A stretch of 64,000 nucleotides of DNA, taken from NCBI GenBank assembly GCA_029287915.1, contig JARFQE010000125.1:18114-82113 (forward strand). The letters run 5' to 3'. Both the position numbers and the translations under genes were made by a program. Origin of the DNA: Arenicellales bacterium (GTDB lineage Bacteria > Pseudomonadota > Gammaproteobacteria > BMS3Bbin11). Each line of letters starts with the position of its first letter. Within the stretch, counting starts at the first letter, position 1. Below, one piece after another: positions 8,577 to 55,249 of this stretch. Under the pieces are notes generated by a model. That model saw only the letters and a list, made by a program, of their open reading frames with translations. It did no database searches and was not told the DNA's origin.

Positions 8577-9998
8577 TTACGCCGATTCGCTTGTACCCCA
8601 GGCCTGTACTTTACGTTCCAGCGTCTTGCGCGACACACCAAGCAACCTGGCAGCCGCTGACTTGTTGCCACCCTCCCTGTCCAGGACTTTTAGAATATGA
8701 CGCTTCTCGACCGCTTCCAGCAGCATTGAATCAGCATCATCTTCTGTCACTGTTTGCTGCCCGTTGGCAGAAATACCACGCAGGCACTGTTCGGGAGTCT
8801 GATCCAGCAGCAGACAACGCTCAATCACATTTTTTAATTCACGGACGTTGCCCGGCCAGTTGTAACTGCGTAACTGAGCCAGTTCCCGATCCCTTATCTG
8901 ATGCGGTGGCACACCCATATCGGCAGATAGTTTCTGCATGAAAAACTCTACCAGGTCCGGGATATCATCAGGGCGTTCACGCAAGGTAGGCATGCGCACA
9001 GTAACAACATTCAGCCGATAGAACAGGTCCTCACGAAAATTACCTTTCTCGACCTCGTCTCCCAGCGCTCTGTTGGTCGCGGCAATTACGCGAACATCAA
9101 CCGGTATCTCACGGTTGGATCCTACCGGCCGGATTGACTGCTGTTCCAGAACCCGTAGTAGATGAACCTGCATGGAAAGCGGCATTTCACCAATTTCATC
9201 GAGAAACAGCGTACCATTACTGGCATAGTTGAATAATCCTTCGCGCCCCTGGTGAGCTCCAGTGAATGCTCCCTTGACGTGACCAAACAATTCACTTTCC
9301 AATAACTCGGCCGACATCGCGCCGCAATTGATCGGCACGAAGCTGCCGCTGCGTCCACTCCATGCATGGATCGCCCTCGCTGCCAGCTCCTTGCCGGTCC
9401 CTGATTCTCCTTCAATAAGCACTGTCGTTGGCATGGGTGCGATGCGCTTAATCACTTCACAGACATTTTTCATAGTCTGGCACTGTCCAACGATACCGCT
9501 GTCATAAAAATGATCAACCTGGCGACGCAGGACGACATTTTCCCTCTGTATACGCTGACTCTGCATGCAGCGCGCAACGGCTGCCATGATCTGATCCGTG
9601 CGAAATGGCTTCTGGATCAGATCCACAGCTCCGGCGCGCAATGCATCGATAGCGGTATCCACTGTGGCCTGGGCCGTGATAAAGATAAGCGAGGTACTGC
9701 TGCCCAGTCCGAGTAGCTTTGTTACCCATGCCAGTCCGGATTGGCCAGGCAAGTGCAGATCAGCAATGATAAGGTCGAAATTACAGCGCTCGGCAAGTGC
9801 CTGCGCTGTATTCACGTCAGCAGCCAGTTCAACCAAGCCGAAGTGTTTCTCCATACCATTGCACAGAAAGTTCCGGGTGTCCGCGTCTGCATCGATAATC
9901 AGCACAGAATTTTGTTTCAGCGACAATCCCTGTGAGTCGCCACTTAACGTTGTCTGCGTAACGCTAAATTCATCATTCTTGAAAGCTTGTTCGGCCAT
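8577..9998 (-). CDS. sigma-54-dependent response regulator (NtrC family enhancer-binding protein: REC-AAA+-HTH)
   Basis: 473 aa. Receiver domain (VLIIDADADTRNF...DLIIADLHLPGQSG), Walker A GESGTGKE, GAFTGA sigma-54 contact motif, ESELFGH, C-terminal Fis-type HTH. No histidine kinase is adjacent. Confidence 0.9.
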   Translation of the reverse strand: MAEQAFKNDEFSVTQTTLSGDSQGLSLKQNSVLIIDADADTRNFLCNGMEKHFGLVELAADVNTAQALAERCNFDLIIADLHLPGQSGLAWVTKLLGLGSSTSLIFITAQATVDTAIDALRAGAVDLIQKPFRTDQIMAAVARCMQSQRIQRENVVLRRQVDHFYDSGIVGQCQTMKNVCEVIKRIAPMPTTVLIEGESGTGKELAARAIHAWSGRSGSFVPINCGAMSAELLESELFGHVKGAFTGAHQGREGLFNYASNGTLFLDEIGEMPLSMQVHLLRVLEQQSIRPVGSNREIPVDVRVIAATNRALGDEVEKGNFREDLFYRLNVVTVRMPTLRERPDDIPDLVEFFMQKLSADMGVPPHQIRDRELAQLRSYNWPGNVRELKNVIERCLLLDQTPEQCLRGISANGQQTVTEDDADSMLLEAVEKRHILKVLDREGGNKSAAARLLGVSRKTLERKVQAWGTSESA

Positions 9999-27362: not shown

Positions 27363-28166
27363 ATGTCCCGAAAACCAAAAGTCATCGGAAAACGTGCCTA
27401 CGAAAAGGCCTTGTTCTCCCTGCAGCTCGAGCTTGTCAAGCTGCAGGCATGGGTACAACACAAAGAGCTTAAAGTGGTGGTTATCTTTGAAGGACGAGAC
27501 GCTGCAGGAAAAGGCGGCGTAATCAAACGTATAACTCAGCACCTGAATCCACGTGTCGCACGCGTAGTTGCTCTGCCGGCACCGACCGAAAGGGAAAAGA
27601 CACAATGGTATTTTCAGCGCTATGCAGCGCATCTGCCGGCGGCAGGTGAAATCGTACTGTTTGATCGCAGCTGGTATAACCGAGCTGGGGTTGAAAAAGT
27701 GATGGGTTTTTGCACAGAAGATGAATACCGAGAGTTCCTTCGTTCCTGCCCTGGATTTGAACGTATGCTGGTTCGTTCAGGAATTATTCTCATCAAATAC
27801 TGGTTCTCTGTTTCGGATGAGGTGCAGGAAAAAAGGTTCAAGGCACGCTTAAAAGAACCCCACAAACGTTGGAAACTAAGCCCTATGGACCTGGAATCCC
27901 TTACCCGCTGGGAGGAATATTCGAAAGCAAAAGACCAGATGTTTGCACACACCGACATCAAGCAGGCGCCCTGGTATGTTGTCAACTCAGACATAAAAAA
28001 ACATGCCCGTCTGAACTGCATCTCTCACCTGCTGAGCCTGATACCATATGAGGACCTGACACCAGAAGAAATCGTCCTTCCTAAACGAAAAAAGACAGTG
28101 GGATATGTGCGGCCACCTATGTCCGACCAGACCTTTGTACCCGAAATTTATCCAAAAGATGATTAG
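27363..28166 (+). CDS. ppk2: Polyphosphate kinase 2 (single-domain PPK2)
   Basis: 267 aa. Walker A GRDAAGKGG, lid FDRSWYNRAGVEKV, Walker B-like motifs. Confidence 0.9.
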   Translation: MSRKPKVIGKRAYEKALFSLQLELVKLQAWVQHKELKVVVIFEGRDAAGKGGVIKRITQHLNPRVARVVALPAPTEREKTQWYFQRYAAHLPAAGEIVLFDRSWYNRAGVEKVMGFCTEDEYREFLRSCPGFERMLVRSGIILIKYWFSVSDEVQEKRFKARLKEPHKRWKLSPMDLESLTRWEEYSKAKDQMFAHTDIKQAPWYVVNSDIKKHARLNCISHLLSLIPYEDLTPEEIVLPKRKKTVGYVRPPMSDQTFVPEIYPKDD

Positions 28167-28274
28167 CAGGAAAATCTAATTCTGATCTAAATCAAGGAAT
28201 GTAATACTCTCTGCGATATAATTAAGCGTTTATAATGCAATTCATCGTTAACACACGATGAATCTCTATAGTTA

Positions 28275-29222
28275 ATGGCAAGTCACAGGAACGGCACAAT
28301 GAATGAGGAACCTACAGATATGCAGGAAGATGAAACCCAGGCTGATGTCTCTACATCTGGAAAGTCTGAGGCGCCATTGAATGAACCAATCACTTCTGAA
28401 GCAATGGCTCCTGATCTCAAAAAAATCAGGAAAAAGGCATTGCGTCGCTATTTTCGTGAAGAAGAACTCAAGCCCTACCAGGCAGAGCTGATTAAAATGC
28501 AACAGTATCTTGAGCAGACTGGTAAACGCATGATCATCCTGTTTGAAGGACGTGATGCGTCAGGCAAAGGTGGCACCATCCGTCGTGTAACTCGCTATAT
28601 GAATGAAAAGCACTATCGTGTGGTTGCCCTTGGCAAACCTACCGAACATGAAAAAACCCAGTGGTTTTTCCAGAAATATGTTCGCCAGTTTCCCCGTGGA
28701 GGAGAAGTGGTTCTGTTTGATCGAAGCTGGTACAACCGTGCCATGGTTGAGCCTGTATTCGGATTTTGCACAGATATAGAGTATAAAAATTTCATGCGTG
28801 GTGTTGGCGGCTTTGAAAAGGACCTGGTACGTCAGGGAACTATTCTGGTCAAACTTTATTTCAGTGTCACAAAAGATGAACAGAAACGCCGTTTTGAACG
28901 CCGCAGGCATGACACCCTGAGACAATGGAAGCTTAGCGAAGTTGACGTGCAGGCACAGGAGCGCTGGGATGAGTTTACCAATGTAAAGTATGAGATGCTG
29001 AAAAAAACCCATACCACGCATTCTCCATGGAAAATCATCCGCTCGAATGACAAGCATCAGGCCAGGATTAATGCGATGAAGGTAATTCTCAATTCTGTAC
29101 CGTATGAACGCCTCGATCCCGATCTGAATTATGTTCCTGATCCAGAGATTGTCCTTTCCGGTTCAAGAGAACTGGAAAAGATGGAGGAACAAAGATTGCG
29201 CGGCGGAAAATTCCTCGACTGA
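28275..29222 (+). CDS. ppk2: Polyphosphate kinase 2 paralogue with acidic N-terminal extension
   Basis: 315 aa. GRDASGKGG, FDRSWYNRAMVEPV; ~55-aa acidic N-terminal extension absent from the first copy. Confidence 0.9.
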   Translation: MASHRNGTMNEEPTDMQEDETQADVSTSGKSEAPLNEPITSEAMAPDLKKIRKKALRRYFREEELKPYQAELIKMQQYLEQTGKRMIILFEGRDASGKGGTIRRVTRYMNEKHYRVVALGKPTEHEKTQWFFQKYVRQFPRGGEVVLFDRSWYNRAMVEPVFGFCTDIEYKNFMRGVGGFEKDLVRQGTILVKLYFSVTKDEQKRRFERRRHDTLRQWKLSEVDVQAQERWDEFTNVKYEMLKKTHTTHSPWKIIRSNDKHQARINAMKVILNSVPYERLDPDLNYVPDPEIVLSGSRELEKMEEQRLRGGKFLD

Positions 29223-31884: not shown

Positions 31885-33342
31885 ATGATGGGAAATAAAT
31901 TCGCCGGTCTTTTCAAACCCGCTGACGAATATCGCCTCACCAGCTGGCTGTTTCTAAAGATACTCGCACTAATTTATTTTGCCGCGTTTCTTTCTCTTGC
32001 AGTTCAGATTAGTGGCCTTGCAGGCCCTGATGGCCTCCTTCCTTTTCATCAGTATCTTACAAATACCTACAGGGACATGGGTAAGCAGGCCTGGGTGCTC
32101 ATTCCCAATGTGTTCTGGCTGGATGCCTCGGATACCGCCCTTACCGGTGCGGCTTATGCGGGAGTAATTCTTGCGGTTCTGCTATTTTTCGATCGCTTTC
32201 GGCTGTTTGCTCTTTCTGGCATGTTTCTTCTGTATCTATCATTGTTCCATGCCAGTGGTATTTTCCTTGGCTTTCAGTGGGATACGCTACTTCTTGAAAG
32301 CGGATTTCTGGCAATTTTTCTGACACGAAACCCGACAGGTCTTGTGATCTTTCTTTACCACTGGCTGCTGTTCCGCTTCCGCTTTATGTCCGGCTTCTTC
32401 AAGCTGGAAACTGGAGACCCGGCGTGGGCCGGACTTACAGCTCTGAATACCTACTTTGAGACCCAGCCGCTGCCCCATATAGGCAGCTGGTATTTTCACC
32501 AGTTACCTGAGTTTATTCTGAAGGCAGGTGTGCTACTGACCTTTGCAACAGAGCTAATAATTCCGTTTTTCATTTTTCTTCCACGGCGATTCAGGCTGTT
32601 TGCAGCAGCTGTAACCATTTTCATGCAAGTACTGATTATCGCAACCAGCAATCATAATTTCGTTAACCTGTTGATTATTTTACTATGCCTGTTCCTGCTC
32701 GATGACAGGATTGTTTCGCGGATTATGCCAAATGGTCTGCAACAACGAATAATTAATCATGGAAAACAGGCTGGTATTCTTTCCACATCAGTTCTGGGTC
32801 TTGCTGCAGTGATAATTATTACCAGCAGCCTCACAACTTTCTACTGGAAAGTGACCAGGAATCCTGTTCCGGAGATCCTCGTCAGCACAAGCTCAGTCTC
32901 CCATCAATATGGTATTGGTCATATCTTTCATATCTTTCCGACCATGCAAACTGAAAGACAGGAACTGGAAATACAGGGCTCGTATGATGGCAGGAACTGG
33001 TATAGTTATATTTTCAAATACAAACCCGGACCAGTAGACAGAGCGCCGCGATTTAATATTCCACATCAACCTCGACTCGACTGGATGATGTGGTTTATCC
33101 CGCCGCAGTCGAGTATGGACGACTACTGGTTCCGACAGTTGTTGAGACGCCTTCATGAAGGCTCACCCCAGGTGCTAGATTTACTGGAATATAATCCTTT
33201 CCCGCAACAACCACCACGGTATATACGGGTACTGGCCTACCGATATCATTTTACTACACCTGAGCAACGTTCCGAGACCGGTAACTGGTGGAGACGCGAA
33301 TATCTCGGTATCTTTCCCTATGTCAAACCACGGCGTCCCTGA
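31885..33342 (+). CDS. Lipase maturation factor (LMF1-like) family integral membrane protein
   Basis: 485 aa. YRLTSWLFLKILALIYFAAFLSLAVQISGLAGPDGLLPF N-terminal pattern typical of bacterial LMF-family members, then multiple TM helices and a soluble C-terminal domain. Confidence 0.65.
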   Translation: MMGNKFAGLFKPADEYRLTSWLFLKILALIYFAAFLSLAVQISGLAGPDGLLPFHQYLTNTYRDMGKQAWVLIPNVFWLDASDTALTGAAYAGVILAVLLFFDRFRLFALSGMFLLYLSLFHASGIFLGFQWDTLLLESGFLAIFLTRNPTGLVIFLYHWLLFRFRFMSGFFKLETGDPAWAGLTALNTYFETQPLPHIGSWYFHQLPEFILKAGVLLTFATELIIPFFIFLPRRFRLFAAAVTIFMQVLIIATSNHNFVNLLIILLCLFLLDDRIVSRIMPNGLQQRIINHGKQAGILSTSVLGLAAVIIITSSLTTFYWKVTRNPVPEILVSTSSVSHQYGIGHIFHIFPTMQTERQELEIQGSYDGRNWYSYIFKYKPGPVDRAPRFNIPHQPRLDWMMWFIPPQSSMDDYWFRQLLRRLHEGSPQVLDLLEYNPFPQQPPRYIRVLAYRYHFTTPEQRSETGNWWRREYLGIFPYVKPRRP

Positions 33343-46473: not shown

Positions 46474-47619
46474 TCAGTTAGATTTATGCAAATTTCGTAA
46501 ATACACTTTCTCAAATAGAGATTTTGCCCAGTGCATCGGTGTCATGGCTGGCATTACCACACCACGAGTTTCACTACGATATACCAGGATACCTTTATCC
46601 AGCGTATCGACAATACATATCAGCTCCACCTTGAATTTTGCAGTAGCGGCTTTGCCTGCCACGTTCAGTACAATATTTTTTGCAGCTGCCTTTGCCTGCA
46701 GGTCCGCCATATGTGCCTGCTTTGGCATCCAGTCGGGGCCAGGATAACTTCCTGCATCGCCTGCCACATAGACACGCTCCATGCCAGTGACCTGAGCCCT
46801 GCCATCAGCTTTGATGAAACCACCTTCTGACTGCGAAAGTGGTGAGTTCTTTATCCAGGCTGGACCAGTCATGCCCGGCATGAACAAAATAAGATCTGCA
46901 GCTATTTCACCCCCTTCTGTTTTTATAATATTATTCTCGAAGGACTGAATCTTATGTCCAAGATGGGTGTCGATCCCACGTTTTTTCATTTCTGCCAGTA
47001 AACCTTTGACGGCTTTTTCACCAAGTCGCTTACCAGGCTGTGGAGCAGGACTAAAAAACAGTAGCCTGAATTTGTCACGTTTACCCTGCTTCCTCAGCCA
47101 GGTATCCAGACCAAACAGCAGTTCAAACACTGGACCACCGCGCATTGCGGAAGGCTCTTTAGGGTTGCCTCCAAAGCCTAAAGCAATCGTACCACCCGGC
47201 AGTACATTTATCTTCTTGCCCATTTTCTCAGCTGCTGATATCCCTTCACAAATGGTAATTACGTTCTCAATACCTGGTAGCTTTTTAATGTAACGCCCAC
47301 CTGTTGCAATCAATAGTGCATCATTTTCAACGTCGCCATTATCAGTTTTCAGCACTCTGCCATCGTCTGATATTCCGGTTACGCTGCCTCGCAGGAAATT
47401 CACATTCAAATCATTTAACAAAGGCTGGATATCAAAACGGAGGTCATTCCCTTGACGCAGCCCATAGGGCACCCAGATCAAGCTCGGCAGGTAAATAAAT
47501 TCTGGTTTTGGCGCCACCAGCGTTAGTTCAGCATCAGGTAATTGCTTGCGTAGTTCTTTCAAACCGGTTAATGCAGCAAAACCAGCACCGGCAACAGTAA
47601 TCTTTACAGCTGAAGTCAT
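46474..47619 (-). CDS. sqr: Sulfide:quinone oxidoreductase-family flavoprotein
   Basis: 381 aa. Rossmann VAGAGFAALTG. ENVITICEGISAAEKMGKKI aligns with the SQR Cys160 region of Aquifex/Acidithiobacillus SQR, ELICIVDTLDKG with the Cys356 region, and HWAKSLFEKVYL with the C-terminal amphipathic segment. Confidence 0.75.
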   Translation of the reverse strand: MTSAVKITVAGAGFAALTGLKELRKQLPDAELTLVAPKPEFIYLPSLIWVPYGLRQGNDLRFDIQPLLNDLNVNFLRGSVTGISDDGRVLKTDNGDVENDALLIATGGRYIKKLPGIENVITICEGISAAEKMGKKINVLPGGTIALGFGGNPKEPSAMRGGPVFELLFGLDTWLRKQGKRDKFRLLFFSPAPQPGKRLGEKAVKGLLAEMKKRGIDTHLGHKIQSFENNIIKTEGGEIAADLILFMPGMTGPAWIKNSPLSQSEGGFIKADGRAQVTGMERVYVAGDAGSYPGPDWMPKQAHMADLQAKAAAKNIVLNVAGKAATAKFKVELICIVDTLDKGILVYRSETRGVVMPAMTPMHWAKSLFEKVYLRNLHKSN

Positions 47620-47920: not shown

Positions 47921-49027
47921 TTATGCTATTGCTGTCACTTGTAAACCATAACCACTGTTAGCCCGCATAGCAAACTTTGCTGGCTCAAGCATACCGCCTC
48001 TGCCAAACATCAGGCTGGGTTTACAGATGTCGTACTGAAGCAGGTACGTGCCAAAAGCACCTTCCTGTGCCTGCAGGCACTCCTTTGCCGCTTGCGCGAC
48101 CAGCAATCCGGCGCGAGTCAGCAAACTGGTTTCTCCAACCTGAGAGCCAACTATCATCGGAACACCGTTATTGATTGCCTTATCTACAATTGCCAGGCTA
48201 CGTAGCAATCCACCCATCTTGGATACTCTTAGATTAATGATCCAGCACTCATCAGTGGAAAGCAGTCGGTCGAATTGTGCGATTTTGCTGAAACTTTCAT
48301 CCAGAATAATTTTCGTTCCCAATAAATTGGCGAGCCTGGATAAATCTTCGTAGTGACCCGCCGTGAGCGGTTCCTCTACGGCCCAGAACGGATACTCCAG
48401 TGCTTGAAGATAGACATATGCCGGGGTCAGTTCATTCCAGTAATTATTGGCATCAAACCTGAGCTGAATATTCTTGTCAGAATATTGTTTTAACAGTGCC
48501 ACCTTCTTCCTGTCAGTTTCCATGTTACCCATCAGCTTGATCTTGAAATCTGTCATACCGATGTCCAGATACATGCTCAACAGTTTGTCGAACATGCTAA
48601 CACTATCAGTTCCCAGAATGGCGCTGTATCGGAATGCCCCTGCTAGTTCCTCAAGACCCAGAAATTTTTCCAGGCTCTGCTGTTGTTGCTTTGCCAGCAG
48701 ATCCAGCAAAGCCATCTCCATGGCGCACCAGGCAGATGGATTGGCATCAATACTAAGCTGGTGATCCGTCACCCACTGGCGCAGCGCTGCAAGTTCTGGC
48801 AACCTGCTGACCTCATCATGATGCTTTGTAAAGAACCCCATCACAGATACCATGGTTTCGCCAGTGACATATTCCCTTGGACAGGCTTCACCATAACCTG
48901 TAATGCCATCTGTGGAGCTGGCTGTCACCAGCACACTTTGGGTCCTGCTTCGTTCCGCAGAAGCATGTGAGAAAGCCAGTTTAAACGGGATATTGAGAGA
49001 TTGAATCGTTAGCTTAATTCTGTTCAT
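47921..49027 (-). CDS. Enolase-superfamily enzyme, MLE subgroup (dipeptide epimerase / N-acyl-amino-acid racemase / OSBS-like)
   Basis: 368 aa. KxK (FKIKL), metal ligands D (LRFDAN), E (AVEEP), D (ILDES), and second catalytic Lys (LRVSKMGG). Confidence 0.8.
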   Translation of the reverse strand: MNRIKLTIQSLNIPFKLAFSHASAERSRTQSVLVTASSTDGITGYGEACPREYVTGETMVSVMGFFTKHHDEVSRLPELAALRQWVTDHQLSIDANPSAWCAMEMALLDLLAKQQQQSLEKFLGLEELAGAFRYSAILGTDSVSMFDKLLSMYLDIGMTDFKIKLMGNMETDRKKVALLKQYSDKNIQLRFDANNYWNELTPAYVYLQALEYPFWAVEEPLTAGHYEDLSRLANLLGTKIILDESFSKIAQFDRLLSTDECWIINLRVSKMGGLLRSLAIVDKAINNGVPMIVGSQVGETSLLTRAGLLVAQAAKECLQAQEGAFGTYLLQYDICKPSLMFGRGGMLEPAKFAMRANSGYGLQVTAIA

Positions 49028-49040
49028 CAGGGGCTGCTAT

Positions 49041-51626
49041 TCAAACAAGAAATACATTGAAGTCAAATGACAGGTCCTGCTTATACTGCAGAATAATATG
49101 CTTGTATTGTCCTTCTTTCTGCCCCTGTTTGACACAGGCCTTGCGGTAAACATCACCAGTGCCCTGCTTTAGTCGTAACATTTGCAGTGGCAGCAACCGT
49201 CCACTGCCGCGTTTGGCCCTGTATTCCATATTCAAAATAGATAGCTGCTGATCAATTCGTTCAGCCACTTTGTCGATCGACTGTCCATGCATCGTCGGGA
49301 CTTCTATATATAAGGTATACCTGGACTGCACAGGATCTGCCACCATGACATAGAAAACCGGGTTCAAATCACACGCAGTTTTCACTGCTTCAATGACCTG
49401 GCTCTCATAGATCTTTTCACCAGTAATACTGGTAACACCCCTACCCTTCTGGACAAACACTAACAGCGGTGTCTTATTCAAATAACCTTCTACACGGACG
49501 ATGTCATTCATAAAATAACGGTATAAACCACTACCCGTCGTCACCACGACATAATATTCTTTGCCCTGATCTAGCTGATGCAATAGTTGATATTGTGCAT
49601 GGCCACTTTCGTATTCATCAACAGCAATAAACTCGAAAAAATTATCCTGTAGCGTAGGTATGCCGGCACCATTCTGTTCATCATAGGGGAGAGTCCCGCG
49701 AAACTCACTGGACACATAACCAAGCTCTGTAATAGCGGTCGAGCTATCGATACTTTGCTGCAGTGCTCCGACAGCAATCCCACAACTGCCTCCGGTCCAG
49801 GTGGTAATCATCTGCAGCGAGGGCCAGACATCTTTCAGGTGAATTTTGGATTGCTGTTGCTCAATTATACGTAATTCCCTGGACCTTACCGGATCAGGTT
49901 TCAATATCTGTGTCAGAGTGTCACGTAAACCTTGCGGCAATTCTGTGATGCCTTCGACGGTGCCCATTTCAATATCCCTGACGTAATTTTTCATATTGTT
50001 GTTCATTAGCGATTCAAGCTTTAACAGCGTGCTGGGATTTGCACAGACAATATAACTCAGGTCACTATGGCCCAATGCTAGACGCAGGATGAGATAATAC
50101 TTAAGCTCATAATCATCAATAGCGAAGACAGCTGCCGGTATAACATACCTGCTTTGTACAAGCTTCGGCATTTTCATATTCAAGACACCGGAGATCGACC
50201 CATAGGGAATGCCCCGCTTGGTATATCCTTCAATTCCAGCCCCCACAATGCCCAGATAGCTGCCTGCAAACGCAGCAGGTTTTCTACGATACTGTAAATA
50301 GGTGAAAAGTTTCTGATCACGCTTGTACCTTTTCAGCATGTGCTCTCCTACTGGCAGGAATTTTGCTTCTGCGGTGGTGCCGCTGGTGACAGCAAAAAGA
50401 ACGGGTTTTTCCGTTATAAGTGCCGGCACCTGAGAATCCATCTGCTCATCAACATAGGCCCGTATCGCCTCGTACTCATTGACCGCCACCAACTGACAAT
50501 ACCGTGTATAAATCGCTTCACTATTAATGATGCTTTCGAAGTCGTGGTCCTTGCCATAGCGAGTATCCTGATTCTTAGTCAGGATAGACTGCAGCAGCTT
50601 ATGCTGTAAGCGCGCAGGATTCCGGGTGGCTTTTAGCAATGGCCGCCAGTACAGTGTTTCGATGATTAGCATGTACAGGCGGAACCACAGGCCTGTTACC
50701 CAATTCCTTAGTTGAATAAGCTGCCACCGACTATCATCACTGACTTCTGCTACTGAAGTAAAAGGTGCTACAAGCTGGGCGCCGAAATCCATCGGATAGG
50801 TATCGTTTTGTAAACCTAGCTGGTGTATGTCCCGACCATCTGGCAGGTAACGTGTACCAAACAGTATGTCCCAGATAATCAGATTATTACCATAATTATT
50901 ATTGGATTCTTCAGTAATCCGGGAATGGTGCCAACGGTGCAGCTCGGCTGTGCTGATCAGATAGTTTAGTGGGCCGAATTTCATTTGCACGTTGGAGTGT
51001 TGAAGAAAACCATTAACGGCATAAAACACAAAATACAGAGCGATCACGTGCTCATTTACCCCAAGCAGGATAAATGGCAGAGCATCTAGCAGATACTGAA
51101 GGGCCTTATCAAGCGGGTGGAAACGGCCTACATTGAGCCAGTAGAGTTTACGCGGGGAATGATGAACTGCATGGAAGCGCCATAACAACGCATTCTCATG
51201 CGCCAGCCGGTGCAGCCAGTAACGCAGAAAATCGGCACTAACCAGCATAAGTACAGCCTGCGCTGGTAGCGGCCAGGCATGTGGCCACAATGATGATGCT
51301 GGTATATGGCCCGATATATTGCCAACCACTACTATCACCAGCAGCAGGCCCAGCAACCTCGGAAACAGCACCTGGATCAATATCATGTACACCGCATCCT
51401 GCCTAACATCCTGCCAGGTACCTTGCCACGAGTTTTCATGAGGCATGATCCTCTCCAGGACGGTCACCATAACGGTGCCCAGTAATACCGGGATCATGGT
51501 GGCTATTTCCAGGCTTGCACCATTTGTCAGCAGTAAGCCATGCAGCAACAAGCTCGATATCATCAGTACAGGGTAAATAGACCAGGAAAAGAGAAGCGAC
51601 TTTCTATGCGCGGAAAATGACATCAA
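49041..51626 (-). CDS. Fusion protein: N-terminal fatty-acid hydroxylase/sterol desaturase domain + C-terminal GH3-family adenylating acyl-acid amido synthetase domain
   Basis: 861 aa. N-terminal ~290 aa with multiple TM helices and histidine boxes HRLAHE, HAVHHS, HRWHHS. C-terminal ~560 aa with GH3 motifs VTSGTTAEAKFLP (P-loop-like), GYVSSE, YRYFMNDIVRV. Confidence 0.8.
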   Translation of the reverse strand: MMSFSAHRKSLLFSWSIYPVLMISSLLLHGLLLTNGASLEIATMIPVLLGTVMVTVLERIMPHENSWQGTWQDVRQDAVYMILIQVLFPRLLGLLLVIVVVGNISGHIPASSLWPHAWPLPAQAVLMLVSADFLRYWLHRLAHENALLWRFHAVHHSPRKLYWLNVGRFHPLDKALQYLLDALPFILLGVNEHVIALYFVFYAVNGFLQHSNVQMKFGPLNYLISTAELHRWHHSRITEESNNNYGNNLIIWDILFGTRYLPDGRDIHQLGLQNDTYPMDFGAQLVAPFTSVAEVSDDSRWQLIQLRNWVTGLWFRLYMLIIETLYWRPLLKATRNPARLQHKLLQSILTKNQDTRYGKDHDFESIINSEAIYTRYCQLVAVNEYEAIRAYVDEQMDSQVPALITEKPVLFAVTSGTTAEAKFLPVGEHMLKRYKRDQKLFTYLQYRRKPAAFAGSYLGIVGAGIEGYTKRGIPYGSISGVLNMKMPKLVQSRYVIPAAVFAIDDYELKYYLILRLALGHSDLSYIVCANPSTLLKLESLMNNNMKNYVRDIEMGTVEGITELPQGLRDTLTQILKPDPVRSRELRIIEQQQSKIHLKDVWPSLQMITTWTGGSCGIAVGALQQSIDSSTAITELGYVSSEFRGTLPYDEQNGAGIPTLQDNFFEFIAVDEYESGHAQYQLLHQLDQGKEYYVVVTTGSGLYRYFMNDIVRVEGYLNKTPLLVFVQKGRGVTSITGEKIYESQVIEAVKTACDLNPVFYVMVADPVQSRYTLYIEVPTMHGQSIDKVAERIDQQLSILNMEYRAKRGSGRLLPLQMLRLKQGTGDVYRKACVKQGQKEGQYKHIILQYKQDLSFDFNVFLV

Positions 51627-51643
51627 CTTAGCAGGACATGTAA

Positions 51644-52066
51644 TCAGGGAGATCGATCACTACGAACATGGTATATGCCTGGCAGAATTATGAACAATGC
51701 CAGCACCAGGTGAAACAGTGATGGCAACCACTGGCCGAACCACTGATGTCCAGGCAGGATAAACAGGCCAATTATCAGCCTGCCCAGCATCAACGTAAAA
51801 TACAGCCCTCCCACCCACAGCAAGCCAATCCCCAGACGCCGGCCTGGTGTCACCACGTTGCTGCTGAAACGGTAACTGACAAAAGCCATCAAAAGCAGGA
51901 TCAATAACTGTGAGCACAGTAACACCTCATAGGGCACGACGCCACTTTGCCAAACATCAAATGCAGGTAAAAATGAAACTGGATGGAGATGCTGAACAAG
52001 TTGCCCAAGCACACGAAAGCAGAATAATGCCCACAATAACCACAGACCAAAGGCGTAGCCTTTCAC
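51644..52066 (-). CDS. Small integral membrane protein (4 TM), unknown function
   Basis: 140 aa hydrophobic ORF wedged between the ABC permease and the fusion gene, same strand. Confidence 0.5.
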   Translation of the reverse strand: MKGYAFGLWLLWALFCFRVLGQLVQHLHPVSFLPAFDVWQSGVVPYEVLLCSQLLILLLMAFVSYRFSSNVVTPGRRLGIGLLWVGGLYFTLMLGRLIIGLFILPGHQWFGQWLPSLFHLVLALFIILPGIYHVRSDRSP

Positions 52067-52133
52067 TGTGTGCCACAGGTATGTTGTGCTGCGTAATCCA
52101 CCTCCGGCTTGTTACATTGCATACCTGGAGCCT

Positions 52134-52895
52134 TCAGTTCTTGAGCCGATATCCGGTCTTGAATATCCACCATATGCCTGTCAGGCAAAGTAGCATAAAG
52201 ACCATTATCATTGCCAGACTAATACCAACATTGACATCGGCAACTCCGTAAAAACTCCAGCGAAAGCCGCTGATCAGGTACACCACCGGGTTGAAAAGAG
52301 TCACCTTCTGCCAGAATGGCGGTAGCATACTGATCGAATAAAAAGCACCGCCGAGAAAGGTCAATGGTGTGATCACCATCATGGGGATAATCTGCAACTT
52401 CTGGAAGTCATCGGCCCACAGGCCAATGATGAAACCGAACAGGCTGAATGAAATCGCCGTTAGCAACAAAAAACTCACCATCATTACCGGATGCATTATC
52501 TGGTAATCTACAAAAAACCTCGCGGTGATAAGTATTAAGCCACCAATGATTAATGACTTGGAGGCCGCCGCTCCGACATATCCGATAACGACTTCTACTG
52601 GTGAAACTGGCGCCGATAACACCTCGTAGATTGTACCCGAGAATTTCGGAAAATAGATACCAAACGAGGCATTGGAGATGCTCTCACCCAGCAGCGACAG
52701 CATCAGGAGGCCCGGAATAATAAAAGAACCGTAGCTGATACCGTCAATATCACCCATGCGTGAGCCGATCGCTGCACCGAACACTATGAAATAGAGCGAG
52801 GTAGTTAGTATAGGTGAAGCTATACTCTCCATCAGTGTGCGCCAGGTACGCGACATTTCAAAAACATAAATAGCGCGGATGGCATAGATATTCAT
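52134..52895 (-). CDS. ABC-2 type exporter permease
   Basis: 253 aa, six TM helices, ABC-2 family pattern; 4-nt overlap with the ATPase gene. Confidence 0.8.
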
Positions 52896-53818
52896 GATTT
52901 ATCCCTCACCAGGCTTACAAAAATATCTTCCAGTGAACTTTGACTGGAATGCAGGTCTTTAAAATCAATACCAAACTGGCTCAGCTTGCGCAAAAGTTCC
53001 GAGATACCGGTGTGCTCTTTCTGTACATCGAAGGTAAAAACCAGCACCTCGCCATCTTGTGACAATTCCAGCGGGTAGCCAGCGAGCTCGTCTGGCAAAC
53101 TTTTTAACGGATGCTGCAAGGTCAGGGCCAGTTGCTTCTTACCCAGTTTATTCATCAATACAGTCTTCTCCTCGATCACACTGATCTGTCCATCATTGAT
53201 CACGCCAATTCGATCAGCCATCTCTTCAGCTTCTTCGATATAGTGAGTAGTCAGGATAATGGTGACGCCGCTATCTCGTAAGCGCCTGACCATATTCCAC
53301 ATACCTCGTCGCTGTTCAACATCAATACCAGCCGTCGGTTCATCAAGGAACAGGATTTTCGGTTCGTGGGCAAGCGCCTTGGCAATCAACACGCGACGCT
53401 TCATGCCGCCTGACAGATTAACTATCCTCTCATCCCGCTTGTCCCATAACGAAAGATCACGCAATACCGATTCGATATAGACAGGGTTGGATGGCTTACC
53501 GAACAGGCCACGACTGAAATTCATCGTTGTCAGCACGCTTTCAAAGGTTGCAATGGAAAGTTCCTGGGGCACCAGTCCAATCATTGATCGTGCTGCACGA
53601 AAATTCAGCACTATGTCATGCTTATCAACAGTAACATCACCTTCGCCTGGGGTGACAATGCCGCAGATGATGCTGATCAAAGTCGTCTTGCCAGCGCCGT
53701 TGGGGCCCAACAGGGCGAAGATCTCTCCCTTATGAATGTCCAGGTTGATATTGTTAAGGGCAAGTAAACCAGTGGAATAGGTTTTGCTGAGATTTCTGAT
53801 TGTAATGATTGACTCCAC
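52892..53818 (-). CDS. ABC transporter ATP-binding protein (ABC-2/DrrA-like)
   Basis: 308 aa. Walker [10 protein letters not shown], signature LSGGMKRR, Walker B ILFLDEP, plus C-terminal accessory domain. Confidence 0.9.
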
Positions 53819-54034: not shown

Positions 54035-55249
54035 ATGAAAGTTGCAATAATTGGAGGTGGTGCGGCCGGTTTCTTTTCAGCTATTACAGTGAAGGAGAAT
54101 CACCCCGAGGCCGACGTTGTTATTTTCGAAAAATCAAAAAAGCTGCTGGCCAAGGTTAAAATTTCTGGAGGGGGTAGATGTAATGTCACCAACGCCTGTC
54201 CATCCATAAAGAAACTATCTGAATCTTATCCGAGAGGTGCAAAAGCTCTAAAAAAAGCCTTCCATATCTTCGATAACAAACATGCCATGCAATGGTTTGA
54301 GTGCAGAGGAGTCCCGCTGGTCATACAACATGACAACTGTGTTTTTCCGGCCTCACAGAGCTCACAAAGTATAATTGATTGCTTTCTGAATCAAACTAAA
54401 AAATTAAACGTTGAAATTAAAACGGGCCGAGGAATAAATAACATTAGACAAATCGGTGACAAGCTCGAACTGGGCTTTATTAACACAGATATTTCCTCGA
54501 GAATCTTTGACAAGGTAATTGTCGCCACAGGCGGCTCACCAAAAAGAGAGGGACTAGTGTGGCTCGAAAAATTACATCACAAGATTGAAGACCCCGTCCC
54601 TTCATTATTCACATTCAATCTGCCTGCTGAATCGATTACTGAGCTGATGGGAATCGTTGTACAAAACACGTTGGTAAGCATACAGGGAACAAAGTTTAAA
54701 TCCGAAGGTCCGCTGCTTATTACACATTGGGGAATGAGTGGCCCTGCGATTTTGAAACTATCGGCTTTCGCAGCCAGATTTCTAAATGAAAAAGGATATA
54801 AGTTCAACACCCGGGTGAACTGGACCAATGTCCAGAATCATGATGCTGTCATGCTATATCTAAAAAACATTGTTAATGAACATCCGGGTAAATTATTAGC
54901 AAATATTCGGCCATACTCCATAGCTGGAAGACTGTGGCGATATCTGCTTGAGAAAATTGACTTGTCGGAAAAGAAAAAGTGGGGAGAACTCGGTAACAAA
55001 GGCCTGAATAAACTGGTAGCTGTATTGACCAATGATATTTATTCTGTCGATGGCAAAACTACATTTAAAGAAGAGTTTGTAACTTGTGGTGGCGTTAGTC
55101 TGGCAAGTATCGACTTTAATACCATGCAGAGCAAAGTGTGTAAAAACCTGTATTTTGCCGGAGAGGTAATGGACATCGACGGTATAACTGGAGGTTATAA
55201 TTTTCAGGCAGCATGGACGACCGCATTTATTGCAGCCAAATTGGGCTAG
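54035..55249 (+). CDS. HI0933/BaiN-family NAD(P)/FAD-dependent oxidoreductase (aminoacetone-oxidase-like flavoprotein)
   Basis: 404 aa, VAIIGGGAAGFFSA...KVKISGGGRCNVTNA N-terminal signature of the YhiN/HI0933 family. Confidence 0.85.
   Translation: MKVAIIGGGAAGFFSAITVKENHPEADVVIFEKSKKLLAKVKISGGGRCNVTNACPSIKKLSESYPRGAKALKKAFHIFDNKHAMQWFECRGVPLVIQHDNCVFPASQSSQSIIDCFLNQTKKLNVEIKTGRGINNIRQIGDKLELGFINTDISSRIFDKVIVATGGSPKREGLVWLEKLHHKIEDPVPSLFTFNLPAESITELMGIVVQNTLVSIQGTKFKSEGPLLITHWGMSGPAILKLSAFAARFLNEKGYKFNTRVNWTNVQNHDAVMLYLKNIVNEHPGKLLANIRPYSIAGRLWRYLLEKIDLSEKKKWGELGNKGLNKLVAVLTNDIYSVDGKTTFKEEFVTCGGVSLASIDFNTMQSKVCKNLYFAGEVMDIDGITGGYNFQAAWTTAFIAAKLG

Follow-up and report, generated by a model that had tools for sequence, protein, structure and literature searches.

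Which of the five genes that lie side by side between positions 53818 and 47921 on the minus strand of a 64,000-nucleotide (nt) stretch of Arenicellales bacterium DNA (contig JARFQE010000125.1; the whole stretch is called the window below) belong together, and what do they make? According to the open reading frame (ORF) list of the window, the five co-oriented ORFs code for an ATP-binding cassette (ABC) ATPase, an ABC-2 permease, a membrane protein of 140 amino acids referred to here as memb140, an 861-residue protein in which a hydroxylase is joined to a GH3-type amido synthetase, and an enolase-superfamily enzyme (Table 1). The initial annotation had taken them for one compact operon, with memb140 as a minor member. 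The tight packing that it described is there: the ATPase and permease ORFs overlap by 4 nt, and gaps of 67, 17 and 13 nt follow between permease and memb140, memb140 and fusion, and fusion and enolase gene, respectively. Public gene calls start the fusion one codon later, at the ATG at 51623, which gives 860 residues and a gap of 20 nt. Comparison with related loci identifies a smaller conserved unit, consisting of memb140, the hydroxylase-GH3 fusion and the enolase-superfamily enzyme instead of five genes. We propose, with a probability of roughly 0.6, that this module builds and edits an N-acyl amino acid (a lyso-aminolipid) at the membrane, a proposal derived from the chemistry of the families involved.

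The two halves of the fusion protein could be assigned with confidence to the families that had been named for them. Its N-terminal part matches the FA_hydroxylase superfamily model (PF04116), contains four hydrophobic regions within residues 10-204 and carries the full His-box set (HX3-4H, HX2-3HH, HX2-3HH); its only specific NCBIfam match is OlsE (NF052566; 204.9 bits, E 1.6e-60, positions 4-285 of 293). The C-terminal part matches the N, M and C domains of GH3 (PF03321, PF23571 and PF23572) with 196.8, 67.8 and 53.4 bits, each model having a cut-off of 23.6 (E 6e-58, 9e-19 and 5e-14), and contains the three nucleotide motifs (S/T)SGT(S/T)xxxxK, Y(G)xSE and GLYRYxxGD, the first of them one residue shorter than the plant form. 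For reference, these motifs read SSGTSQGRPK, YGSSE and GLYRYRLGD in AtGH3.11 (PMC12493201). Across 22 homologues the three His boxes are invariant, as are T414-T418, K422, Y637, E641, G700-Y704, N707 and D708 of the synthetase. All ten sequence matches in the PDB are plant GH3 enzymes (best 5kod, E 7e-21, 77 bits; JAR1, E 8e-20), and no generic AMP-binding or acyl-CoA ligase family was found in the fusion protein by Pfam at E≤0.01. The C-terminal half is thus recognisable as a true GH3 domain and not a generic acyl-CoA ligase. Within NCBIfam it matches OlsH (NF052613) in two stretches with 105.3 bits (E 2.8e-30), which marks it as a homologue, not an equivalog, of that enzyme.

A protein search with the fusion returned 489 clusters at E≤1e-10, and the best 120 of these have the same four Pfam domains in proteins of about 855 amino acids that are 44-59% identical to the window protein; the one exception is a cluster with 100% identity, which stems from the window's own contig, near-identical copies of which are present in several ENA metagenome assemblies. 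In addition, a scan of species-representative genomes gave 571 relatives, and the best 80, which were compared as loci, match the fusion over nearly its whole length, apart from a few that are cut by contig ends. These two observations show that the fusion is genuine and no frameshift artefact of two genes.

When the proteins of the window were compared with the 80 loci by tblastn, and a locus was counted as testable if it had enough flanking sequence, an enolase gene was found to follow the fusion directly, in the same orientation, in 64 of 71 testable loci, with a median gap of about 17 nt; two further loci gave fragmented matches and in one the gene lies upstream. A memb140 homologue is present in 52 of 64 testable loci, in 40 of them directly upstream of the fusion and in 6 just after the enolase gene. 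The three-gene core is reinforced by natural fusions, namely of memb140, hydroxylase and GH3 on one chain in L005 (1005 aa), L022 (988 aa) and P0060 (1009 aa; 42% identical to the ORF of the window), and of hydroxylase, GH3 and enolase enzyme in P0289 (1207 aa). Elsewhere, the module is arranged as two, three or four genes. In L078, the enolase gene stands upstream of the membrane gene, a deviant order. According to the record titles of the best 80, the related loci are spread over more than 10 phyla and are mostly from metagenome-assembled genomes, with carriers among Gamma-, Beta- and Alphaproteobacteria, Nitrospira, Acidobacteriota, Bacteroidota and Gracilimonas, as well as Planctomycetota, Verrucomicrobiota, Gemmatimonadota, Latescibacterota, Dehalococcoidia, Acidimicrobiia, Bdellovibrionota and others. 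Genomes of Nitrospira sp. BLG_1 and Gracilimonas sediminicola are among them. To judge by the best relatives, the window itself comes from an uncultured bacterium that is probably a gammaproteobacterium.

The membrane protein is therefore a core conserved partner of the module and not the minor member it had been taken for. Its family comprises at least 167 clusters, all called 'hypothetical' where they are named and none with a Pfam domain; a single-sequence search gave 3 matches only, and a 40-sequence alignment was needed to find more. Public gene calls for the same metagenome contig leave the memb140 ORF uncalled in L081 (9558..9977) and L082, and in L083 (2342..2599) an 85-aa ORF is called in another frame at its position. 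Homologues in more than 50 loci nevertheless demonstrate that the true gene is in the 140-aa frame. A confident structure model has four transmembrane helices, with the invariant polar residues R18, Q22, Y46, Q53, Y89, R96 and H119 inside the helices, and no specific solved relative. Cytochrome b5 fusions are found in FA2H, and on this pattern memb140 was considered as a haem electron carrier for the hydroxylase. We regard this as a minor possibility only, as only one histidine of the protein is invariant and as memb140 is also found fused to a hydrolase, an enzyme with no need of electrons; its fusion to both the hydroxylase-GH3 protein and a hydrolase speaks against a purely electron-transferring role. 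Memb140 is probably a membrane partner or scaffold of a complex.

The hydrolase in question is of the CocE/NonD type (Peptidase_S15 and PepX_C), is encoded in about 10 of the 80 loci and is a non-universal partner of the module; it is fused to a memb140 domain in four loci and probably also in L012. In P0341 and P0349, the enolase enzyme is fused to a Hydrolase_4 alpha/beta hydrolase. These fusions hint at an added acyl-transfer or hydrolysis step in some lineages. A divergently oriented helix-turn-helix regulator is found near the module in 7 loci.

In 18 of the 80 loci, which represent about five lineages, the hydroxylase (~291 aa) and the GH3 enzyme (~550 aa) are encoded as separate genes. 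The two parts are separated by one stop codon (13 TGA, 3 TAG and 2 TAA) and always share a reading frame, with an in-frame ATG 2-9 codons past the stop (for instance at 8847..8858 in L062); an out-of-frame split was not seen among the 18. One explanation for such in-frame stops would be repeated fission or fusion through point mutations, another that read-through of the stop codon gives rise to both forms.

What chemistry the enolase-superfamily partner performs is the point at which the initial annotation has to be corrected in part. Its assignment to the MLE subgroup stands: Pfam MR_MLE_N and MR_MLE_C both score above their cut-offs, and the protein combines a capping domain and a TIM barrel with metal ligands at strands 3-5 and a KxK motif on strand 2. 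The 65 module-linked homologues all retain K162, K164, D192, E218 and D243, and an AlphaFold2 model (predicted local distance difference test score, pLDDT, 95.9) places these residues, together with R267, at strand ends. The statement that all catalytic residues are present does not hold. MLE racemases and epimerases normally use a pair of lysines as bases (PMC8142540), but in the five best PDB alignments Arg267 is aligned with the strand-6 lysine (K268 in 1jpm). Of the 65 module-linked homologues, 64 have arginine at this position, as do 130 of 150 family representatives; lysine is found in a distant minority and one module-linked case, L078 (1989..3032). The interchange of lysine and arginine suggests that this position contributes charge rather than proton transfer. 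As an alternative second base, one might speculate about His21 in the capping domain, which is a histidine in 117 of 130 representatives of the arginine group, the remainder being mostly alignment gaps, and mostly a glutamine in the lysine group (Q 11, H 6 of 17); this is a weak lead that is confounded by phylogeny. Three enzymes are the nearest solved relatives of the enolase partner, two dipeptide epimerases (1jpm and 3jva) and a racemase of N-succinyl-Arg/Lys (2p88), with profile E-values between 5e-51 and 3e-46 and Foldseek TM of 0.82-0.86, and all NCBIfam equivalogs score far below their cut-offs, the best with 94 bits against 200.

Table 1. Positions of the features discussed, in window coordinates unless a related locus is named.
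Feature	Position	Strand	Remarks
memb140 membrane ORF	51644..52066	-	140 aa; core gene 1; no Pfam match
Hydroxylase-GH3 fusion ORF	49041..51626	-	861 aa; core gene 2
OlsE-like hydroxylase domain	50754..51596	-	residues 11-291
Pfam FA_hydroxylase core	50853..51254	-	residues 125-258; E 1e-30; 107.3 bits, cut-off 31
His box HRLAH	51198..51212	-	residues 139-143
His box HAVHH	51159..51173	-	residues 152-156
His box HRWHH	50925..50939	-	residues 230-234
GH3 amido synthetase domain	49089..50636	-	residues 331-846; GH3, GH3_M and GH3_C above cut-off
GH3 nucleotide motif 1, TSGTTAEAK	50361..50387	-	residues 414-422
GH3 nucleotide motif 2, GYVSSE	49704..49721	-	residues 636-641
GH3 nucleotide motif 3, GLYRYFMND	49503..49529	-	residues 700-708
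MLE-subgroup enolase-superfamily enzyme	47921..49027	-	368 aa; core gene 3
KxK motif, K162/K164	48536..48544	-	
Metal ligand D192	48452..48454	-	
Metal ligand E218	48374..48376	-	
Metal ligand D243	48299..48301	-	
Arg267 in NLRVSKMGG	48209..48235	-	replaces canonical strand-6 lysine
ABC ATPase	52892..53818	-	308 aa; Pfam ABC_tran above gathering score
ABC-2 permease	52134..52895	-	253 aa; Pfam ABC2_membrane; NCBIfam PRK15066 subfamily above cut-off
Transposase or integrase	L084 5939..7099; L086 1801..2811		closest relative, 57% identity
memb140-CocE/NonD fusions	L015 11693..13954; L018 11693..13957; L019 790..2898; L038 5784..7964		
Split loci	L009, L014, L030, L033, L056, L057, L061, L062, L063, L065, L067, L069, L070, L073, L074, L076, L077, L079		hydroxylase and GH3 as separate genes

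The two ABC genes had been read as a dedicated exporter, in an operon of five genes by which an N-acyl amino acid is made, hydroxylated, racemised by a two-lysine enzyme and exported. Co-orientation, the 4-nt overlap, gaps of at most 67 nt and the lack of a convincing terminator between the permease and memb140 genes all fit such an operon. However, a homologue of the permease was detected by tblastn in just 1 of the 80 loci, L007, where it lies on the opposite strand about 1.9 kb away, and no ABC pair was found in L084-L087, the loci whose proteins come closest to the fusion (identity 57% and 54%) and which do carry the enolase gene. Moreover, identity to the L007 locus is 71-80% for the ABC pair (80% for the permease) but only about 46% for the module proteins, a signature of a conserved housekeeping pair. 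Together with the arginine in place of the second catalytic lysine, this makes the five-gene scheme very improbable. The occurrence of the permease in a single locus and the absence of the pair from the closest relatives place the ABC genes outside the conserved module, as chromosomal neighbours that may be co-transcribed with it in the window. The PRK15066 subfamily of the permease is presumably the YadH type; an E. coli DNA search with the ABC pair for YadGH orthology gave no match. In the closest relative, transposase or integrase genes (rve, IS110 family) lie upstream of the fusion, at 164 nt in L086 and about 0.9 kb in L084; with the lack of a memb140 homologue there, this suggests a local rearrangement.

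Searches for control signals in the window gave no boundary of an operon. Promoter-like sites were as frequent as in shuffled sequence (12 against 12.1 expected) and terminator-like sites not clearly more so (10 against 6.0 ± 2.5), and none of either kind marks an operon boundary. A Pho box, as a sign of phosphate-starvation control, was not found in the upstream regions of the module, and the Rfam scan of the window had no matches. Downstream of the module by 301 nt and in the same orientation lies a Pyr_redox_2 flavoprotein gene (46474..47619, minus strand) whose product has a weak likeness to sulfide:quinone reductase of type III (86 bits, with the cut-off at 525). This flavoprotein and the HI0933-like flavoprotein encoded at 54035..55249 were considered as electron donors for the hydroxylase and rejected, as neither of these flanking genes recurs in the 80 related loci by tblastn. 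At a greater distance, the window encodes a 485-aa protein with a match to the lipase maturation factor family (LMF1 and LMF1_C; 31885..33342, plus strand), a family known mainly from eukaryotes, and a tandem pair of polyphosphate kinase 2 (PPK2) genes (27363..29222, plus strand).

The combination of a GH3 synthetase, a di-iron hydroxylase fused to it and an adjacent MLE-type enzyme makes a lipoamino acid pathway the best reading of the module. The general idea of an N-acyl amino acid pathway is retained from the initial annotation, with the OlsE and OlsH matches and the epimerase relatives in its favour, while the export step and the two-lysine racemase are dropped. We propose that the cytoplasmic GH3 domain would use ATP to adenylate a free fatty acid, or another lipophilic acid, and, by analogy with the action of OlsH on ornithine, would then acylate an amino acid at its alpha-amino group. 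The membrane-embedded OlsE-like domain could then hydroxylate the product with O2, either on the head group or on the acyl chain. The four-helix memb140 protein might serve as the membrane partner or scaffold of the complex. In the next step, the enolase partner would bind the free carboxylate of the amino acid through Mg2+ and Lys164 would remove the alpha-proton, resulting either in epimerisation with a different second base, for which His21 is a candidate, or in elimination of a beta-hydroxyl group and formation of an N-acyl dehydroamino acid. A bolder version, which we put forward only tentatively, is that the product belongs to an as yet undescribed class of membrane or secreted lipid. 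In this version, the head group of an N-acyl amino acid would first be hydroxylated, and an enolase enzyme with a non-canonical Lys/Arg, possibly Lys/His, active site would then invert its stereochemistry or dehydrate it, with memb140 as an obligatory component.

Several points weigh against the lipoamino acid reading. The proposed function is deduced from family chemistry, and the order of the three steps is a guess. The OlsE and OlsH scores lie below the equivalog cut-offs of 475 and 620, respectively, so far below that the substrates may differ from ornithine lipid. A fatty acid is only the presumed acyl substrate of the GH3 domain, and plant GH3 enzymes use non-lipid acids. With the strand-6 lysine missing, the analogy to the racemases fails as it had been stated. 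Furthermore, 12 of the 64 testable loci lack memb140 and a few lack the enolase gene, and the module has no conserved O-acyltransferase, an activity that a full acyloxyacyl lipid would require.

The main competitor, which we consider possible but unlikely, is that the module is a plain variant of the OlsH and OlsE enzymes and makes a C4-hydroxylated (lyso-)ornithine lipid, with the enolase enzyme and memb140 as minor or unrelated components. OlsE and OlsH are the only specific NCBIfam matches of the fusion, and their activities, formation of N-acyl-ornithine by OlsH and hydroxylation of ornithine at C4 by OlsE, would suit such a product (PMC12493201; PMC12971839). However, both scores are well under half of the equivalog cut-offs, and the operon of OlsH carries OlsG and OlsI and no enolase enzyme. 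Here, the enolase gene is linked in about 90% of the loci and even fused to the synthetase, and thus looks like an integral step that is foreign to ornithine-lipid biology. Nor is an OlsI-type O-acyltransferase conserved; an alpha/beta hydrolase is found in only about 10 of the 80 loci and is of the CocE/NonD type.

The product might also be no lipid at all, if the GH3 domain conjugates an amino acid with a small acid, aromatic or alicyclic, as plant GH3 enzymes do, so that a signal or secondary metabolite is made or inactivated, and the hydroxylase and enolase enzymes tailor that compound. The GH3 motifs are indeed nearer to the plant enzymes than to OlsH (GLYRYxxxD against GMWSHLIGD in OlsH), and the PDB matches are enzymes that conjugate auxin, jasmonate and benzoate. 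Against this, the synthetase is covalently joined to an integral membrane enzyme of the FA_hydroxylase family, sometimes also to memb140, and the sole specific NCBIfam match of the N-terminal domain is a lipid head-group hydroxylase. Characterised members of the FA_hydroxylase family act on lipids. On balance, a non-lipid conjugate seems improbable. Less credible again is a catabolic or salvage route, in which the enolase and hydroxylase enzymes would break down exogenous N-acyl amino acids or aminolipids and GH3 would re-ligate the fragments. The occasional linkage or fusion of CocE/NonD and Hydrolase_4 hydrolases to the module points this way, but GH3 enzymes spend ATP on making amide bonds, and the related loci show no conserved association of the module with an uptake transporter, an amidase or a gene of beta-oxidation; we regard this route as extremely improbable. 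Synthesis and editing of an N-acyl amino acid by the three-gene module remains our preferred reading.

How far is such a pathway already known? The view that bacterial GH3 proteins are essentially uncharacterised has been overtaken by the description of OlsH from Singulisphaera acidiphila (Rivera-Najera and co-workers, 2025), which makes N-acyl-ornithine from free fatty acid, ATP and Mg, and requires neither coenzyme A (CoA) nor acyl carrier protein (ACP) (PMC12493201). OlsH is only 21% identical to JAR1 and was inactive in living E. coli, probably for want of free fatty acids; for homologues from beyond the planctomycetes, its authors predict amino acid substrates other than ornithine (PMC12493201). 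In ornithine lipid, OlsE hydroxylates the ornithine head group at C4 (PMC12971839). The OlsH/OlsI pathway and the module described here have in common a bacterial GH3-family enzyme that is encoded in an operon with lipid-modifying enzymes. They differ in that the GH3 domain is here fused to a membrane hydroxylase, and in their partners, which are the enolase enzyme and memb140 here and the methyltransferase OlsG and the alpha/beta hydrolase OlsI in the operon of OlsH. Similarly, the hydroxylase domain resembles OlsE over the full length of the model, has the same His-box set and occurs in split gene versions of ~291 aa, whereas in the fusion it is joined to a synthetase and scores below the equivalog cut-off. 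With the dipeptide epimerases and N-acyl-amino acid racemases (Bacillus subtilis YkfB, 1jpm; the Enterococcus faecalis enzyme, 3jva; the Bacillus cereus enzyme, 2p88), which act on N-acylated amino acids with a free carboxylate, the enolase partner has the fold, the strand-2 KxK motif and the metal ligands at strands 3-5 in common; it differs from the dipeptide epimerases by Arg267 in place of K268 of YkfB and by QEG in place of the DxD motif that binds the ammonium group. Plant GH3 enzymes (JAR1, GH3.5 and GH3.12/PBS3) have the three Pfam GH3 domains and the three nucleotide motifs in common with the fusion and are its only solved relatives by sequence, but overall similarity is low, and the protein described here is bacterial, tethered to the membrane and probably uses a lipid acyl substrate.

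Our literature search for the fusion or the gene set found no description of the module in the papers that it covered, and neither the OlsH paper (PMC12493201) nor a 2026 review (PMC12971839) mentions hydroxylase fusions or enolase partners. In the survey of OlsH homologues, hits had to reach a subject coverage of 70% or more (PMC12971839), a filter that would exclude fusions of 860 aa. Taken together, the concept of a GH3-made aminolipid has been known since 2025, and what sets the module apart is the fusion of an OlsE-like hydroxylase with GH3, the apparently obligatory Arg-variant enolase partner and the new four-helix membrane protein.

Aminolipids such as ornithine lipids help bacteria under phosphate scarcity or stress and are sensed by host immunity, and it was not until 2025 that a route to them by way of GH3 came to light, in one planctomycete. 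The module would extend this route to a large and phylogenetically diverse set of bacteria from the environment, among them Nitrospira, sulfur-oxidising Gammaproteobacteria, Acidobacteriota and Bacteroidota, and would add to it a third chemistry, the abstraction of an alpha-proton by an enolase-superfamily enzyme. It would also give a first functional context to the memb140 family, which lacks any Pfam model, and provide N-acyl amino acid synthetases that work without CoA or ACP, enzymes of interest for making biosurfactants. Should the tentative proposal of a new lipid class prove true, it would reveal the first role of the enolase superfamily in the editing of lipid head groups, in dozens, possibly hundreds, of mostly uncultured species from more than ten phyla.

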